DNA of 36,823 nt, from positions 1 to 36,823 of the forward strand of contig KZ539006.1 of assembly GCA_000934665.2 (NCBI GenBank), in the 5' to 3' direction. The DNA comes from Catajapyx aquilonaris (lineage: Eukaryota). Numbering within the stretch: the stretch's first letter is position 1; every line of letters starts with the position of its first letter. The notes under the pieces were generated by a model. It was not told the origin of the DNA. It was given only the letters and a program-made list of their open reading frames with translations, and did not search any database. This document shows positions 4,600-32,800 of this stretch, one piece after another. Made by a program: the position numbers and the translations under genes.

Positions 4600-5037
4600 T
4601 TTACTTCCAACCTACATTTTTTTCTACAATTATTTCCAACCTACACTCTTATCACAATGCCATTATTTCCAACTTACGCAATTGCGACATTAATGTAAGT
4701 TGGAAATAAGGACATTGCGATAATAGTGTTAGTTGGAAATAACATCGATGCGACAAGAGTGTCAGTTGGAAATAACATCAATGTGACAAGAATGTCAGTT
4801 GGAAATAACGGCAATACGACAATAGTTTCAGTTGGAAATAACGGCAATACGACAATAGTTTCAGTTGGAAATAACGCCAATACGACAATAGTTTCAGTTG
4901 GAAATAACATCAATGCGACAATAGTGTCAGTTGGAAATAACGTCAATGCGACAAGAATGTCAGTTGGAAATAACGTCGATACGACAAGAGTGTATACGTT
5001 ACATACATTCTTGTCGCAATGCATTTATTTCCAACTT
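4600..5037. repeat. 33-bp minisatellite with internal orientation switches (fold-back array)
   Basis: GTTGGAAATAA at exact 33-bp period from 4699 to 4963 (9 copies). Opposite-orientation units lie at 4600-4677 and 5006-5037. Confidence 0.95.
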
Positions 5038-7689
5038 ACCGCCTCCTACAAATTATTGCAAAAAAAAAATCAGTTAGCCTACACCCATTTTCATATAAAA
5101 AATTGCAATATTGTTTACAGGTGAGTTTGGCCAAAATCGCGAATAAGCCACGATAATTCGCGGCTCCCATAGGAATTTCATTATCATGCAACAAACCGGC
5201 AATTAAATGCTGAATTGCCATTTGAAAAGGGCCATTCATACCCTCTCTGCTCAACACTTTTGCAATAAATCCGAGAGTGCATTTTATTGCCCTTCCCCCG
5301 GAAACAACAAACTTAAAAAAAAAATGGCGAAAAAAAAACTTCCACACGGTTACGTATACCAAAAGCATTTAATAATTTTCAGGTTACTGTCATCCTGTGG
5401 TTTCAGGGTATGCCAAACGGACCTCGAAGTCACGCTGCAATTTTCCCTCCTTTTTAGTAAATGAGAAGCTGTCATTCTTAGGTTTTCGTGGCCGGTACGG
5501 TATGGTCACAAGATGTGCCCACAGGATTCTCACAACTTAACTAAAGGGGTCGTGCGGATAAACCACGTGGGATTTCCCCCTCCCAGTATTTTATGTAGGA
5601 GGTTTATAGTACTACTATAGGAAGCCCCTTGCATAATGGGTCGCCTGGAAACGAATTCAGCGGTGGGTGTTCCTTTGAACTCAGAGGACATTAGTTCTTG
5701 CCTGGCCCTTTCCGAGCAGCCCTATTAATACATAACACAAGTAGCCTAATCGCATTGGGAGGGTTCCCTTTCTGTCAGCGACGCCCTCGCGTTTATTGTC
5801 CCCCCACATCCCCCCCTTTGCGACGCCGAGGCTCTAAAACCCATCTCGACAAAAACATAGGACCCGATTTGTCATCTGCAAAAAAAAAAACGCCACTCTA
5901 AAAAATGGACCAATGCAGTTTCTGTGCAAATTATTGCAAAATTTTTGTTTATAGTTTTGATAGACTTATCATTTGGCTGATAGATTTTTTTTAAAAGGCT
6001 CCATTCATGTGTTTGTTCAGATTATTCTGGTGCAAACTAGAAATGTCTGTTTTTAAATGCACGCTAAGTATAGAACAAAAAAAAAAGAAGTGCAACACGT
6101 GCATCTGTATACAAAAGTGCATCAATGTATTGATCTCACAAGTGCTTCAGATTTTACACCAATAAAAAGGACATGAATTCGGATAATTGAGTAAAGTGGT
6201 AAATGCGGTGTGTACTTGCTAAAGGCTCATTATTGGCCGTAAAAGTTAAGCAAGTTTACTGAATAGTTTACCGCATTGGTGCGAATTGCTTTGGATGTGC
6301 AACTTTTGCAACATGTGAAACTATTGCGAAGCTGCGACTCGAATCAAATTTTTTTTATATAAATATGCTATATACTGTACATTAAAATTAGATTAAAATG
6401 AAATATCAACAGAATTGATCATACTCGTATGTAAAATTACAAAAAAAAAATCATTTCAAAGCAATTCACTGAATAAAATAAGACAGTGTAAGCCACCGTT
6501 TGACAGTTTGCAAATATTCTATTATTATAGTACAGTATGTGTCTATAGCGACACAGGAAGCGTGGGCGACTTGCAGATAATTCCGCAACATCCAAGCGGA
6601 TCATGATTTATTTTAAGAAGCAGTAACTCGAACTGCATTAGTAAAGATATGACGTACACGTGTAGCTTCGATACTCCGCAAGTACACTGTAACGTGTTGC
6701 TAAAAAATTAATGTACAATCAGGCCAGGCACCTTTAGGCGTCTGGTTATATTTTTATAGCACACGACTCGATAATTATGTATGCAGAGCCCTCTTATAAA
6801 TTCAAATTTTGACGGAAACAAGCTACGAGGCCTGATATAAATTCATGTCTTTTGCAACATATATGCACTTGTACAATGTGGTAGATGTTACATTTAGAAT
6901 TTGTCGTAAACAAGTCATGTGCAATTGCACGAGTTTATTGGTACAAGATCACAGACTCGAAATGTGGCGAATTACATTAGACGCAAGTGTGGAAACAAGT
7001 ACACAACAAAAATAAACAAGCATAAATAAATAATGTATCTCTGAAATTGCAGCCAGAGAATACAGGCCGATCCTAGTATATCTGCAGCTGCATGCATAAT
7101 AAGCTGATTATATTGAAACGTACAGTATTCATTAACGCACACATATGAAGACATGAGACGCAGACAGTTCAGGGTCATACTGGATCATTTCGAGTCCATT
7201 AAATTTTTATAGTAGATTGCCTGATATAGGGTATGTACGTGAATGACACAATAAAAAAATTCGAGTGCGTCTCGAGTCTTCATTCTGACTGTGCAGTACT
7301 TTCTCAGAAAATGTCTGGGAGGGGAAAAACCTGGCATTAACCCGCATTCAACTTATTCGCGAAGGTTAAACACCTTCCAATCGTTCACTAAGAGACGAAT
7401 AAGTTATCATAATTTCACACCCAACCTATTATCTCCCAAGCCAGCTTCTGTTGCAAAAATCGGCAAGGTCAACATCCTTACGGAGAAGATGCCAATCTCG
7501 CTAATATTCTAGTCCAAACTATGTTATTTGATGGTGGCCCATTCTAATCACTCATTAGTGATCGCATAAAAAAGAGATGAAACCGGAATGACAGCAGTGT
7601 TGTACAAGGAGAGCGGCGCAATGAAAAGGCGGGTAACCCATCATTACCCGATCTGCCGTAAATCTCTTTAGAGAAGCCCCTAAGGTTAC

Positions 7690-7790
7690 CTTCTAGAACG
7701 TCACCACTTCAAAAGTGTGTAAGGTTGTCACTCCCAAGTGCAGATGCTCTCGAGTCACTTACCTGCGAAAGAGAGAAAAAAAACGTTATA
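7690..7790 (-). other. Candidate recursive splice site (ratchet point) with putative 73-nt RS-exon
   Basis: Minus strand reads TTTTTTTTCTCTCTTTCGCAG|GTAAGTGAC (junction 7763/7762). Downstream cryptic donor GAAG|GTAACC at 7690/7689. Confidence 0.6.
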
Positions 7791-8643
7791 AGTAAACAAA
7801 CAGTGAGAGTCGTGCAAGAGGGCCCTTTACATCATTCAAACCGGTGTTGATAACAAGGCGTTGATGACCTGTCACAACCGACCCTTATGCAACACCCCCT
7901 TATCTTTCAGTAATCGCTGTGGCCTGATCCGCACGATAACACTTATGATTGTTAAAATTTTTGTACAATATGCACTATGTTGTCCATGATTTTGTCTGGT
8001 ATAGAAACAGTACAAAACGGGACCAGGTCACGCTGCAACGCACAGATCACGTGCTATTGCGAAACAAAAAAAAACACCCCCCTCAAGGTGAATTCTGGAT
8101 TCCGCCGGTGGCAATAATCTGTGCAGAGGTTGGGGAGATACCGCGAATGGCCTTGAAGCTCACAGTGCAAAGTACTCCCCCCCCCCCCNCCCGATGCCAA
8201 AAGAGCGCCTCTTGCAATTATCATCCGAATAAAATTTTGGCCAAACTGGCCGCTAATTAGAAAATTCTCAACCGTCCAATGAGTTAATGTCAGGGCAACC
8301 CAGCAAACCGTAATCGTGGCCAACTCGTCGGCTAAAAGCATACTCCTCGACACAATAAATATAAAAAAAGACAGGGGGTGGGAGGGGGGGGGGGGTTATC
8401 CTCTCCCCGCCACATTTGGCCGCACGTCTACTTCGCCCGACGCCGCCCGACGGCGACCCAAACTTTTTACTGGAAGACCGCCAACATGCAAATGAAAAAG
8501 CCTCCCAATGTAGACGGCCGTCTTCTTTAAAGCCCACACGGAAGTCGAGTCCTGGCGACCAATGATTCCCGCTTTTTTTTATTATTTATTTGTCGAAAAT
8601 GTCGCACGCTTGTTCTTATTTTATCAGCGACCTTCGGTATATA

Positions 8644-8825: not shown

Positions 8826-9535
8826 CTTAAAATCGCTAGCACGATCGCTGGAGACTTAAATAATACTAACAGTGATTTATCGGCTTAAACGTTATTTGTA
8901 TCAGCTACGTTTGTATACCAGTGTGCTGCTATGAGGAATATTGAATTACCTTCGTACAGACTATCCGGAAGACACATCAAGTGTTGCTGAGAGAAGCCAG
9001 AAAAAGTGTAAATATATCGTCTTTTAGACAATTGGAGTAAAAACTGTCGAATAAAATACATAAATAAAAATAAATACTAAACGCAGCGGAGTTTAAGATG
9101 AAATTAACCGCTGTTTGCATAATTTTAGTCGCTAGCGATCGTACTAGCGAATTTAATCCCGATCGCTAGCGACTTAACGTTTAAGCACGCAAATCGCTGC
9201 TTGTATAATTCTAGTCGCTATAGCGATTTCAATCCCGATCGCTAGCGACTTAACGTTTAAGCACGTAAATCGCTGCTTGTATAATTCTAGTCGCTATATC
9301 GAATTTAATCCCGATCGCTAGCGACTTAACGTTTAAGCACGCAAATCGCTGCTTGTATAATTCTAGTCGCTATAGCGATTTCAATCCAGATCGCTAGCGA
9401 CTTAACGTTTAAGCACGTAAATCGCTGCTTGTATAATTCTAGTCGCTACAGCGATTTTAAGTCCGATAGCTACCGACTTTTAAATTATACAATCTGCGAA
9501 ACGCAGCTGCTACAAATAAGCCGGTTAAATCGCTG
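8826..9535. repeat. 76-bp tandem array (about 4.5 units, ABAB higher-order pattern) with inverted flanking units
   Basis: GATCGCTAGCGACTTAACGTTTAAGCACG starts at 9161, 9237, 9313 and 9389. Diverged inverted unit at 8826-8895 and inverted fragment at ~9475-9500. Confidence 0.92.
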
Positions 9536-12138: not shown

Positions 12139-14704
12139 TGAATATTCCAGTTTCCAAAAATTGCCTTCGATAGTTTATGGGGAAATGACTAGTTTCCGCT
12201 GTTTGACCTGCAATTCTGGCTTAGGGCCAGTCTTCCAAACATATCTAGCCTCAAAACCTCTTTTTTCTCTCTCTCTCCCCCCCCCTCTCTCTCTCTTTTT
12301 CTTAAATGTATATTGGGTCTTGTACCCAGCAGTCGGTCAGTGTATAGCCAGGTCAAGGGTAGCACCAAAACTATATTGGGGTTGGGTCTAACGGTAACTT
12401 GTACGACCCCGTTATCCCAGACTTTTGTCGCCTTCCAAAAACTATTTCCGACCCCCAAATGGAAGCAAAAGTGGCTAGCCACAATGGGGGACATCACTTA
12501 ATCTTATACGTAATGATAAGACCCGCACCTTATTTTTGTTGGGTGTGATATTACATCAAACAGATTATCATTGAGGTTTTTATTATTCCGTCGGTCATGT
12601 ACGTTGGAGCAACTTACTTTATCGCTGGAGCCAGCACTTCACAAAAGGGCCCTGTCATTTCCTCCACTGATAAACAAGCAGGATATTCAGTTGGTGAAGG
12701 TTAAGGTGGATTTGTCCTTTACTTGCGATTACACGTCACTTACTGTCTCCATCACAGATTCGCATACGTTACACTAGCCCGGGGAAAGAAAAAAAAACAT
12801 ATATGCAGGTGCGCATGACCGGTCTGCAATTCGTCACTGTCTCAACTGACCCTCATCGCGCAAAACAAGATCAAATGAAGCCCCTCTTTGCGCAGTCAGC
12901 AGCCTCTTAGTATCGTCTCCCGGATCTGGCGACGTAATAAGAGTCGCCAAGGTAAAGACAAGTTTATTCCATGCTCAAGCTTCGACCATTGATGATAGAG
13001 AAGGAGAAAAAAAAAAAGTGTTTTTTTTCCCCTATGCCGGAACACAGGGCAAGGCCATCAGTATGGTTTCAGGAGGCGTTTCTCGCTTCTCCGATGCTGG
13101 GCAGTCACGCGGTAATATTTTTACACTCTGATTAGCAGATTGCTGAATATTACGCAACGGAAACTTGTCAGAAAATCAGGTGCATACCAGTACCTTCTTT
13201 AAAAGTACAATTAATGTTACGAAACCCCCCCCCCTCCCCAGAACATGTAGTTATACAGCATGTGCGTAGTAAGCAATGGGCCGGTCACTGACTTGACCTT
13301 TCGACCCTAAACACAAACCGCGCGGTGACTGGTGGGCTTCACAAAAAAAAATGTGAAAAATTTCATTACAGTGATCATTATGCGCGGTTCTCTCAGGATC
13401 ACCCCCCAGCACATTTATTTTTGAGTCCAACTAGTTCGGGGGGGGGTCAAGTTGCCCCCACATCAAACCCCACTAGAAATGGTCTTTGTGTCGCTGCCCC
13501 GATGACCTCAATACCACGCGGGCACAAACTTGGACTTTGCCTCGCCACATAAACCTTTGCAAAGTCATCACGCATTGTTAGGTTCGGTCATGATTATCTG
13601 CGGAAAAGACCTTCAAAATATTTCTATGCGACTCCAACCAAGCCAACAGATATTGATATTAAATTATAATTTTTTTGTTGCGAAATTTTGCGAAATTTGA
13701 GAGTGGTATTGGCTATATTTTTACACAGCAGAAATCGGTCAAGCTCCGCTTTTATCACTCTGAGAGGTCAAAGTTCACGACTTTTTTGCTGACCTGTCGT
13801 AGATAATATTCTCCAGCCATGTTCACACCCTCGTTTGGCTTCAAGCCTATAACCACATACCAGTTATTACTCACAGCATGTCAACTAGCAAAAAAAAAAA
13901 AAAGGTGTGTACCAAATTAATTTCTTTTTGAAATCGCAAATGTTTCTTGCTTTTTTGAGACTTGCCCAAAAAAAATTAGAGGCGCCAACTGGGTCACCAG
14001 ACATGGTCGGTTTTCGCATCCGAGCTTTTAGTGTCCCTGTGCCCACAACTGAAATAATTCCCTCTGGATTACTTTCTGGTCGCAGCTTCGTTTCGTTCGT
14101 TTCGCCCCCCCTCAAACTTTACCCACTCTCAAAACTCTGCCAGTACTAGCGATAGACTCTTCAAAGACTATAGAGGTTGGGCAAGAGGCGAAACTGTTTG
14201 CAAACTGGGAGGGGTCCGCTTCGGAAATGAGAAAGTCTATTTTTTCCCCACACTTTTAATGCGCGCCCCACTTTTTTCTTCTGAAGCTAATTACGCATTG
14301 ATTCGCATAAAATGCGTGCAAATTTTTTGTTACGTTATGTACAGGGTGTATCGTTTTTTTTTTTAAAAAAATCAGACACTGTTAATTGAAGCCTCTCTCT
14401 TCCCCAGTATATATCCGGGGCAGGAAGCAGCAATTACTACAGGCGAGAACTTACAGGGCTCATGTCCAGGCCGGTGCTTGCTGCTTAATTATTAACCCCC
14501 GCTTCATAAATCACTGACACCGCAGCTTTTAAGCCTTGTGTGCTNCCCCCCCCCCTTCCCCTTTATCTCTGGTTGCATCGATATTTTCCAAACTAACCAA
14601 CACAGTGTCTCATGTGCAAATTTTCTCACCAGTGTCTTTTTAACTATTCACTTACTTCGGTCTAAGTGTCAGGTGACAATGAGTAAGTAGTGGTTACTAC
14701 TGCG

Positions 14705-16268: not shown

Positions 16269-17157
16269 ACCATCCATTCGTTTGCTGTGGGCAGCCATCG
16301 TTTAGGCTCGTGGCACCACATTAATGTCCAGAATTATACCCAAAATTCGTAAGTAAATCCAACCAAGAACGACTAAAAGTGTCCCAAGCTTTATTGTAAT
16401 CCGGGCATAAAAACGAAGGGGGGGTTTGTCCTGACGAGCAATCTTGTTTCACAGCCGCATTCCAAACGCTATAATAAAAAGACCAGTGACTCCTCTCATC
16501 AACTACATGGAGAAAGAAACGGTCTGTAACACACACACACACAAAAAAAAGTGCTGGAGAACGAGCTAATTTCGGGACCTCGTGAAGAGGAGGACCCTTT
16601 AGACGTCATTCAGCAGCCGGACTTATCCATCATCTGTTACGTTAAGAGGAGTCTCAAGAAGTCACCTGTCTCCTACCTGGTTTTTGGTACTTGTTCTTTT
16701 GAAAGTTATTTGCAGCTAATATACATATTTGATGGGTGGTCCTGATGCTTCACCGTATTGTTGGCATGGATACATTTTATGTTCGGCAGTAGGCGCACCT
16801 TGGGTTTGTTCAAATCGCATTTAACACATGTGATTGCAAGGATGTTGCAAGCAGGCGGCCATTGTCCAAGGAAGGCACCCTGATGGTAGCAAGTGGCAGA
16901 TGGTTACTGTTGCCGGAAGGGCCATCAATTCAACCAGTCAGAGTCGCATACGGGACCAGGATACTCAAGTAGGACGTCCTTCACCTGTACCGCCTTTGTA
17001 ACAAAAAAAATTCCGCAATACTCCGGGTGTATAGGCACCCCGGATTTAAACCCTCCCACTACCTGTCGCAATTAAATTACCTCCGATAATGAAGTGCAAG
17101 TTAACCCACAAACCCATCCGTGTAAGAGCCTTTGGTCGCAGAAGCACGGGACGGGAC

Positions 17158-24286: not shown

Positions 24287-24511
24287 TCTGCCGTCAGATG
24301 TGAGAGGACCGTAACTCATTATCCACTTCCCTTGCGGCGAGAAAAGAAATCAAGTGTTACCGAAAGCATCCAAGAGGTGGCGTTGGGGGAAGGGGGGAAA
24401 AGGAACGGCATCCCAACTCCACCTGTTGGGTGCTTTTAGTACCACTGCTTTTTTTCTCGCCGCAAGGGGAAGTGGACATTGAGTTACGGTCTTCTCATAT
24501 CTGACGGCAGA
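24287..24511. mobile_element. Palindromic MITE-like element, ~100-bp imperfect arms with a ~24-nt purine-rich loop
   Basis: TCTGCCGTCAGATGTGAGAGGACCGTAACTCA... pairs with ...TGAGTTACGGTCTTCTCATATCTGACGGCAGA. Pairing continues to GTTGGG/CCCAAC. Confidence 0.85.
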
Positions 24512-24698
24512 CCTGAGGATTATATGTCAGAAGCTTGGCGAAATATGCTGAAAAGTCCGCGTGTAAAATAAAATTGTAGAGATGCAGAACAATTTTTCTG
24601 TGGATATACGGTTAGAGAAACACAATTTCCATCTTTGCAGTAATAAAATTAATTACTTACAAATATGAGCTGGATGAGAGTTCAAATTGTAGTAGGCA

Positions 24699-24902
24699 TA
24701 CTATAACACGCAAAAAGATTGCCGCACTGTAGCCATGTGGTGTTCGCGACTTTTTTGTTTACCCTCCTGCCGCAAGGGTCGTTGCGGGATGACGGTGTTT
24801 GGGGCGATTCTACGGCAACGACCCTTGCGGCAGGAGGGCAAACAAAAAAAGTCGCGAACACCACACGGATACAATGCGGCAATCTTTTTGCGTGTTATAG
24901 TA
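24699..24902. mobile_element. Young palindromic MITE with TA flanks (Tc1/mariner-superfamily style)
   Basis: Arms 24701-24785 and 24815-24900 differ by 4 substitutions and one T indel. TA flanks both ends. Confidence 0.9.
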
Positions 24903-26594
24903 TTATATAGGTAGGTAGGTTTCAATGCAAAATGACCCATATACGTATATGTTCGAAATATTGCATTTCGCTTATTACAGTACGCTATGACGTAAAATAA
25001 TATAAAACGACCAGTAGCACTGCCTTGTAATAACTTACAGTGTGTTATACCACCGTCCATTATAGCTAATGATGGTATTACTCCCATACAGTATTCCTGC
25101 GAGTAACCGAGTAACTATAGTGTCTACAAACATTCCTTCAGATGTTTATTGCCGCTATAAATCAGGACGTAAGTTATTGGCGGAAGGCAGCATATCGAAT
25201 AGGTTGCAAGTGAGTCGTTGAATGTGCATACAGCCAGATCGAATGGAAGTCATAATTCCCATTCAACCTATTGAATGCAATGTACAGTATATATATGCAG
25301 TGCGCATCACGCAAGGCTTCACATATCAGCTACAAAATGTTACAGTAGAATTTACTGATGCGAAAATTCGGTATATAACACACCTTGAAGTTGTTGCTAA
25401 TTAGTTACAAACAGTCTTGCCAACGTCTGGCTTTCCGAGGCCCATGCACATCACACTCAATTCGTTGATAATATTCACGACTTCACGTTGGCAAAACCCG
25501 GCATGAAAATTCAGCGAAGGAAACGAGCAGAAAAATGAACCGAGTCCGTGAGTTATTAGCGGTTCGCATCTGGTTAATCCAGGCCCAGCACCGCTTTTGT
25601 CTCTTCCAACGCCGACATGAAAAGGTGTTAATTAAGACTACTTTGATGTGGGGTGGGCACACCTTGACTTCTTTTTTTTTTCCTTTCTTTCTTTCATGCA
25701 CCGCTGTTTTCTAAATCCGCCATCAGGGGGCTAATCTCGCAGAAAATGGGGGCACACAAAATATACAGTGTATGTCATCTGACTGGAATTTGCGTGCGCT
25801 CCATTATGTTAAATCTGAATGCAAAGCACCTGGCGAAATATCTGGGGCATGGCACCGACCGCCATTGTTACGAATTAATGACGCCTCCTGTGATCGCAGC
25901 TGTCAATTCCTGCAATTACTGGTGCCTTGTGACGATGGCACACTTTTTTTTCTCATATAAGTATGAAAACAATATGGTAGGAATGCCTGTCCTTCGACGG
26001 TGAATACCCATATATGAGATTGTTGGAGCATCTTTTTTTCCGCGAGCTCAGATCCCTTGTTGACGCTAATCGCTCAACTTCCTTTTGTTCTCAAAGTTTT
26101 AGCTATGCAATGTGAGAAGCATGTCCTGCACTTTTTTCTCTTTTCCCTTATGGCGCTTCGAAGGCATGTCAAAACTGATCCTTTTGTTCGGCCGCCAAGT
26201 CGCCACAAAAGACATCGATGGCGCCTGTCCAATTGGTCAAGTCGCCTGCCATAACAATTAAAACGATGACAAAAAAAGGGGGACGATGTTGAGCTTCCAA
26301 TGCTATATACAAAAACCTATACAGGTGACGGATGAACTACAATTCCTAATGGCGGTTCGATTTTTTTTTTTCATCCACAGCGAACAGTTCCGGGGAGAGC
26401 ATTCATGTAAATTGCTTCCATCAAACGGATCGCCCCCCTGATGACGAGCTGGTGTCACCGGCTTCCCCATTCCTTCGTCCTCGGTAATGGTCCCCGACCC
26501 CCCCTCGCTTTGCAATTCGGCAACTCTCAGACAGATTGTCATACGCACCGCACCGTCACGGAACCCGCAAAAAAAACGTGCAAATTCGCACCCT

Positions 26595-27003: not shown

Positions 27004-27141
27004 NNNNNNNNNNNNNNNNNNNNNNNNNNNNNNNNNNNNNNNNNNNNNNNNNNNNNNNNNNNNNNNNNNNNNNNNNNNNNNNNNNNNNNNNNNNNNNNNN
27101 NNNNNNNNNNNNNNNNNNNNNNNNNNNNNNNNNNNNNNNNN
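27004..27141. other. Assembly gap (N run) inside a poly-C tract
   Basis: Continuous Ns flanked by C runs on both sides. Confidence 0.99.
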
Positions 27142-32097: not shown

Positions 32098-32800
32098 CTG
32101 TTAAAATCGCAGTTAGTGCCACTGTTACAAATCGCAGTTAGGGTCGGTGTTAAAATCGCAATTAGGGTAACCCGCACTAAAATAGCAGTTAGGACGAGTT
32201 AGGATCACTGGTGAAAATAACAGTTAGGGTCACTGTTACAAATAGCAGTTATAGTAACTGTTACAGATAGCAGTTAGGGTCAGTGTTGAAAAGCGCAGTT
32301 AGGGTTACTTACAATCACAGCTAGCGTCAAGGGTGAAAATTACAATTAGGGCGAATTAGGGTCACTTGCGAAAAATTGTAGTTAGGGTTACTGTTGAAAA
32401 TAGAAGTCAGGGCTACTTAAAAATCGCAGTTAGCGTCACCGTTGAAACTCGCAGATAGGGCCACTAGTGAAAATCACAGTAGTAGGGACTGGTGAAAAGT
32501 CGCAGTTAGGGTCATTGTCAAAAATATATCCGGGTTACTTAAAATCGCAGATAAGGCCGTTGGTGAAAAATCGCAGTTATGGTTACTTTAAATAGCAGTT
32601 AGGGTCACTGGTGAAAATCACAGCTAAAAATCGCAGATAGGGCAACTAGTGAAAATCACAGTTAGGGAAACTTGTGAAAATCACAATTAGGGTCACTGGT
32701 GAAAAGTCACAGTTACGGGTTACTGTTAAAATAGCCGTCAGGGTTACTCTTGAATATCGCAGTTAGGGTCACTTGAAAATCGCGGCTACAAATCGCAGTT
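32098..32800. repeat. Degenerate ~25-27-bp minisatellite containing TTAGGG (consensus about AAAATCGCAGTTAGGGTCACTGKTG)
   Basis: Many recurrences of AAAT(C/A)(G/A)CAGTTAGGG over ~700 bp. Confidence 0.92.

Follow-up and report, generated by a model that had tools for sequence, protein, structure and literature searches.

A putative ratchet point with a candidate cryptic RS-exon on the minus strand of a 36.8-kb stretch of non-coding eukaryotic DNA

The stretch of DNA analysed here, hereafter the window, spans 36.8 kb (positions 1-36823) and has a G+C content of about 0.42, which is somewhat raised between 8 and 10 kb (0.466). It is interrupted by two runs of N, at 1788-1959 and 27004-27141. On its minus strand, a 3′ splice site signal ending at 7763 directly abuts a 5′ splice site signal beginning at 7762, and this composite site is the subject of the present analysis. 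With respect to the coding content of the window, none of the 256 stop-to-stop ORFs of at least 55 aa matched a Pfam family above the cut-off, and the three sub-threshold matches that were obtained (E values of 0.0065-0.0099, under the curated cut-offs) correspond to the chance expectation for 256 queries. ORF count, longest ORF and codon 3-periodicity were all at null levels outside a 33-nt minisatellite located at 4621-5049. This array contains about 13 copies of the unit, showing 62-81% identity to the reference copy and an internal inverted symmetry, and it generates long artefactual ORFs on both strands with strong 3-periodicity, as well as a miRNA-like Rfam match below threshold. The ORFs of highest 3-periodicity in the window lie in this minisatellite and, being an artefact of it, were rejected as coding sequences. 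Two other ORFs, at 12850-13128 on the plus strand and at 16324-16605 on the minus strand, were also rejected, since their periodicity is at the level of the null for 55 ORFs and they look unprotein-like.

As regards RNA genes, the window contained no Rfam family at the gathering score and no tRNA gene; when Rfam matches with E values of up to 0.5 were considered, two miRNA-like matches appeared far under the gathering score, one of them in the minisatellite and the other beside an N-run. Only one of the 56 acceptor-donor pairs of the window encloses an open frame. The window is non-coding eukaryotic scaffold DNA that carries no recognisable coding exon, so that none is found over a distance of at least 7.7 kb on the downstream side of the composite site and 29 kb on its upstream side. 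This is equally compatible with a long intron or with intergenic DNA.

Read on the minus strand, the composite site has the sequence CTCACTGTTTGTTTACTTATAACG-T8CTCTCTTTC-GCAG|GTAAGTGACTCG, where the bar separates the acceptor G (7763) from the donor G (7762). The acceptor GCAG (7763..7766) carries a C at position -3 and a G at position -4. It is preceded by the polypyrimidine tract T8CTCTCTTTC (7767..7783), a run of 17 unbroken pyrimidines that accounts for 17 of 19 positions and that is the main driver of the high score of the acceptor described below. The tract is more prominent than those of ordinary introns, as is typical of ratchet points, and it places a T at -6 and a C at -5 (7767). The branch-point consensus is yUnAy. 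A candidate branch point that agrees with it, CTTAT, occupies 7788..7792; its A, at position 7789, precedes the acceptor G by 26 nt, and the sequence offers a second candidate branch A at 7786, inside the motif TATAAC. No AG occurs from about position 7824 down to the acceptor AG, the nearest upstream AG being about 60 nt away. On the other side of the junction, and abutting the acceptor, lies the perfect donor GTAAGT (7757..7762), which is the putative regenerated 5′ splice site, that is, the donor of the predicted ratchet point. The direct juxtaposition of acceptor and donor at 7763/7762 is the one that defines a ratchet point of the fly type.

Downstream of the junction there is a second, weaker donor, GAAG|GTAACC (7684..7689), whose own junction falls at 7690/7689 and which would close a putative cryptic RS-exon at 7690..7762. 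This interval measures 73 nt (3 x 24 + 1), a length that is not a multiple of 3, and translation shows stop codons in all three of its frames. The GTAACC donor at 7689 reaches 7.07 bits, in comparison with 12.7 bits for the donor of the putative ratchet point, and it is the best donor within 400 nt downstream of 7762. In addition, the acceptor-donor pair that delimits 7690..7762 ranks at the top of the 56 pairs of the window. The interval has, in its letters, the properties of an RS-exon: it is short, out of frame and provided with a weaker donor of its own. Taken alone, however, the downstream donor is weak evidence for an RS-exon, because 85 GTs in the window score at least 7.07 bits (1.15 per kb per strand) and a donor of this strength is found by chance within 73 nt in roughly 8% of cases. 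These observations bear out what the sequence-only reading had described on the minus strand, namely a strong acceptor fused to a perfect GTAAGT at 7763/7762, followed 73 nt downstream by a second donor in another frame.

The strength of the two fused signals was then compared with that of all other candidates in the window. All AGs and GTs of the 36.8 kb, on either strand, were scored with a simple splice-site matrix that is generic for metazoans and not specific to this organism, so the bits given here are only indicative. Results showed that 7763 leads the 3825 AGs as a 3′ splice site (17.9 bits), just as 7762 leads the 4144 GTs as a 5′ splice site with 12.7 bits. The combined score at 7763/7762 amounts to 30.5 bits, compared to 17.7 bits for the runner-up among the 248 AGGT sites. 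The CAG is scored in both matrices, and the same double count was present in the simulations with which this value was compared. These simulations used Markov models trained on the window itself, and none of the 1500 windows simulated at each of orders 1, 3 and 5 (0/4500 in total) reached 30.5 bits; the highest scores were 27.1, 28.1 and 28.9 bits, respectively. According to a rough calculation in which the extreme-value tail was extrapolated from the simulations, a site as good as this one would arise by chance at a rate of ∼3e-4 to 2e-3 per window, which amounts to about 2-14 equally good chance sites genome-wide if the ∼256 million letters of contigs approximate the genome. The motif AGGTAAGT is present twice in the window when both strands are considered, and the other copy (35303, minus strand) lacks a pyrimidine tract, having 10/19 pyrimidines versus 17/19 at the candidate site. 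The site is exceptional for one window, yet the motif alone is no proof of its use.

We also examined whether the site belongs to a repeated sequence. In three DNA runs from one sample, one contig per run spans the site at a likeness of at least 80%, and word depth at the site is similar to that of its flanks in DNA runs of the same sample. Since only one spanning contig was obtained per run and no intra-window repeat covers the position, the site is single-copy. For the same reasons, an origin of the site in a repeat or transposable element was rejected, and the Pfam search of the 256 ORFs detected no transposon protein domain in the window. Comparison of the contigs revealed no allelic difference within 7484-8188, versus about 12 SNP positions elsewhere in the 4 kb compared, and this SNP-free segment points weakly toward constraint. 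A scan of metagenome contigs with exact 25-mers gave no match. Another run, of unstated kind, contributed no contig over 5050-9060, a result that carries no weight as to expression. Extra contigs gathered only at 8356-8408, a simple repeat rich in T, G and C homopolymers that draws pieces of many unrelated DNA contigs and at which the contigs differ in length. Similar poly-G/poly-C runs adjoin single Ns and both N-runs of the scaffold, which suggests that poly-G/poly-C tracts break the assembly.

Base composition was analysed for indications of the organism and of the transcribed strand. The observed/expected ratio of CpG in the window is 0.90, a near-normal value that argues against a typical vertebrate genome. 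On the minus strand, T exceeded A in 15 of the 19 two-kb bins and G exceeded C in 14 of them, and after masking of homopolymers the skews were significant, with z values of 2.7 (T>A) and 5.0 (G>C). According to PMC5786239, coding strands generally show T>A, together with an excess of C over G in invertebrates and of G over C in vertebrates. Because the non-vertebrate-looking CpG content makes T>A and G>C point to opposite strands, the skews give no strand call, and this pair of indicators, contradictory under the invertebrate rule, was set aside. The hexamer AATAAA occurred 41 times on the plus strand and 29 times on the minus strand, a difference that is not significant (z ∼1.4) and that has the direction expected for minus-strand transcription. 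The whole window (1-36823) departs significantly from strand symmetry: on the plus strand A exceeds T and C exceeds G, most markedly at 26-32 kb; transcription, replication or repeats may be the cause of this asymmetry.

Ratchet points of Drosophila are reportedly also the subject of Hatton 1998, Burnette 2005 and Joseph 2018. Such intronic ratchet points, or zero-nucleotide recursive splice sites, are described in the fly genes Ubx, kuz, osp and Bx (Duff 2015, Joseph & Lai 2021, Pai 2018). The present site resembles them in the AG|GT juxtaposition of acceptor and donor, in the unusually prominent pyrimidine tract, in the GTAAGT donor, in the short out-of-frame putative cryptic exon with a weaker donor and in the non-coding surroundings. 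RS-exons are presented by Joseph & Lai (2021) as short (∼50 nt), variable in length and generally out of frame, so the 73 nt found here exceed the typical fly length within a published range that is itself variable. The same authors report, from mutagenesis in flies, that the donor of the ratchet point suppresses the donor of the RS-exon by competition. The anatomy at 7763/7762 agrees with these descriptions, and the claim that an AG|GT followed by a short downstream cryptic exon is the published layout of recursive sites stands.

The main difference from Drosophila concerns position -5. A TT at -5/-6 is reported for 196 of 197 ratchet points, a rule established for Drosophila only, and in the table of Pai 2018 it was present in all 47 rows examined out of 539. 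The site at 7763 has the T at -6 and a C at -5, which is very rare in flies: across the 539 rows of that table, TCNCAGGT (T-C-N-CAG|GT) appears 8 times, one of them with high confidence, in comparison with 128 occurrences of TTGCAGGT and 61 of TTTCAGGT. Should the organism be a fly, the C at -5 counts genuinely against the site; otherwise, the rule may not apply. On this account, the qualification of the site as a textbook ratchet point, which the sequence-only reading had proposed, was overstated.

Beyond Drosophila, several systems offer points of comparison. The candidate, whose sequence layout is compatible with that of the RS-exons of vertebrates (as presented in Sibley 2015 and Blazquez 2018), is like them in that the recursive 5′ splice site would compete with the donor of the exon and in that inclusion of the exon would introduce stops. 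In contrast, the CpG ratio of the window is untypical of vertebrates. In the locust, an invertebrate outside the Diptera, a recursive site was predicted in the 230-kb intron 2 of NPF1 with the support of U2AF65 RNA immunoprecipitation (PMC8892266). That site, like the one analysed here, was predicted from its motif and comprises a branch point and a T/C tract. The nature of the evidence differs in all three cases: the candidate is known from sequence alone, unlike the ratchet points of Drosophila, whereas vertebrate RS-exons are mostly expressed or annotated exons and the locust site lies in a known gene and has the U2AF65 data. Poison or cassette exons and 5′-UTR exons share with the 73-nt interval its short exon-like extent, its strong acceptor and weak donor and its stops in every frame, but they normally do not start with a perfect GTAAGT. 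Firm documentation of recursive splicing is limited to Drosophila, mouse and human, and a 2026 review calls its prevalence poorly defined; in the literature retrieved, the reports from outside flies, mouse and human were the locust NPF1 prediction (PMC8892266) and one study in lungfish. The earlier remark on the scarcity of reports of recursive splicing from other groups than flies and vertebrates is in agreement with this literature, and it may not apply to the present organism.

The explanation that we tentatively prefer, while holding its probability to be short of even, is that a minus-strand gene has a long intron here, in which the site serves as a ratchet point followed by a cryptic RS-exon. 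The ratchet-point reading fits the site because the two best splice signals of the window coincide and are accompanied by a branch point, an AG-free zone, a weaker downstream donor and a non-coding context. The sequence shows that the splice signals are present, fall together at one position, stand out statistically and occur in a single copy; that the minus strand is transcribed, that the site is intronic and that the spliceosome uses it are only inferred. In the mechanism proposed, the branch point near 7789, the 17-nt pyrimidine tract and the CAG would recruit U2 and U2AF, and the weak donor at 7689 would allow exon definition of the 73-nt interval. Once the exon upstream has been joined to 7762, the GTAAGT directly behind it would regenerate a strong 5′ splice site, which would be expected to beat the weak GTAACC donor. 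A second step would then remove the 73 nt together with the remaining intron, and the mRNA would keep no trace of the process. Inclusion of the 73 nt, should it ever occur, would give a poison exon because of the stops in all frames. The anatomy of a ratchet point is sound in this site and its use in splicing is only putative. A more specific version of the ratchet-point reading appears doubtful: it takes the window to come from an animal that is neither dipteran nor vertebrate, and the site to be a functional ratchet point whose acceptor departs from the fly type (C at -5).

The juxtaposition could also be accidental, that is, a pyrimidine-rich low-complexity run could happen to end in CAG beside GTAAGT, the DNA being intergenic or never undergoing splicing here, an explanation that we consider possible but on the unlikely side. 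T/C-rich runs are indeed over-represented in the window (observed/expected ratios of 1.22 for TT and 1.16 for CC), the simulated maxima approached 30.5 bits as the Markov order was raised (from 27.1 to 28.1 and 28.9), and the candidate was chosen by eye out of a large scan, at a chance rate (∼3e-4 to 2e-3 per window) that leaves room for about 2-14 such sites per 256 Mb. The departure from the fly TT rule and the second donor, itself only a ∼8% event, also speak for an accident. Against it, none of the 4500 simulated windows attained the score, and an accident would require the top acceptor and the top donor among about 8000 candidates to meet at one nucleotide. It would also have to bring together there a well-spaced branch point, a zone free of AG and, at a distance like that of an RS-exon, the strongest donor of the neighbourhood. 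Moreover, the known density of ratchet points, more than 500 in the fly genome according to Joseph & Lai (2021), far exceeds the estimated rate of chance sites.

If the signals are used, they might still belong to conventional splicing. The acceptor at 7763 could be the ordinary acceptor of an expressed non-coding exon of at least 73 nt (in a 5′-UTR, an lncRNA or a poison cassette) that starts with GTAAGT; this could be an "expressed RS-exon" or an exon in which recursive splicing has no part. Such an exon seems to us rather unlikely, even with an acceptor, a branch point and a downstream donor that form the best of the 56 acceptor-donor pairs. The stops in all frames permit only a non-coding or poison exon, and expressed exons with features of ratchet points exist, fewer than 50 being reported in flies and many in mammals (Joseph & Lai 2021; PMC6224609). 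Conventional exons presumably outnumber ratchet points vastly, and some of them would start with GTAAGT by chance; ordinary splice sites in general are abundant enough for a few to have an excellent partner signal beside them accidentally. However, a perfect six-base donor, the first of 4144, is improbable at the first base of an exon unless selected, and under the competition rule established in flies (Joseph & Lai 2021) GTAAGT would be expected to beat GTAACC and remove the exon. Conversely, CAG|GTAAGT is a perfect donor that could end a first or non-coding exon lying upstream, from about 7763 as far as 8053/8118 or further, in which the pyrimidine tract would be present only incidentally. 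Two acceptors, of 8.9 and 9.7 bits, are found at distances of 291 and 356 nt upstream, and the G+C content at 8-10 kb is somewhat higher (0.466), but the putative exons are closed in all frames and the top acceptor of 3825 would have to be an accident. We regard this donor-only explanation as very improbable, and it is less likely than an acceptor of a non-coding exon.

Should the ratchet-point reading be true in a lineage outside flies and vertebrates, zero-nucleotide recursive splicing with cryptic RS-exons would appear as an old strategy for coping with long introns that is widespread and not peculiar to flies and vertebrates. A site validated in another lineage would reveal how common the stepwise removal of long introns is and whether the TT(-5/-6) rule is general. 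The mechanism is already known and the candidate adds at most one more member to it; at present this is a single candidate, read from the DNA, whose value is that of a precise and cheap target.

Besides the minisatellite, the window contains other repeated structures. A tandem array at 9069-9524 is made of a 76-nt unit whose central copies are 95-99% identical, and a 42-nt piece of this unit recurs in inverted orientation at 8853-8894. A degenerate array at 32100-32774 comprises at least 15 copies of a 25-nt unit with CAGTTAGGG, which has a telomere-like TTAGGG core. Finally, two neighbouring, near-perfect inverted repeats were found at 24287-24511 and 24698-24903, one with 45-nt arms that are 91% complementary and lie 135 nt apart, the other with 59-nt arms that are 95% complementary and lie 88 nt apart; both look like small foldback/MITE-like elements or hairpin RNA genes.
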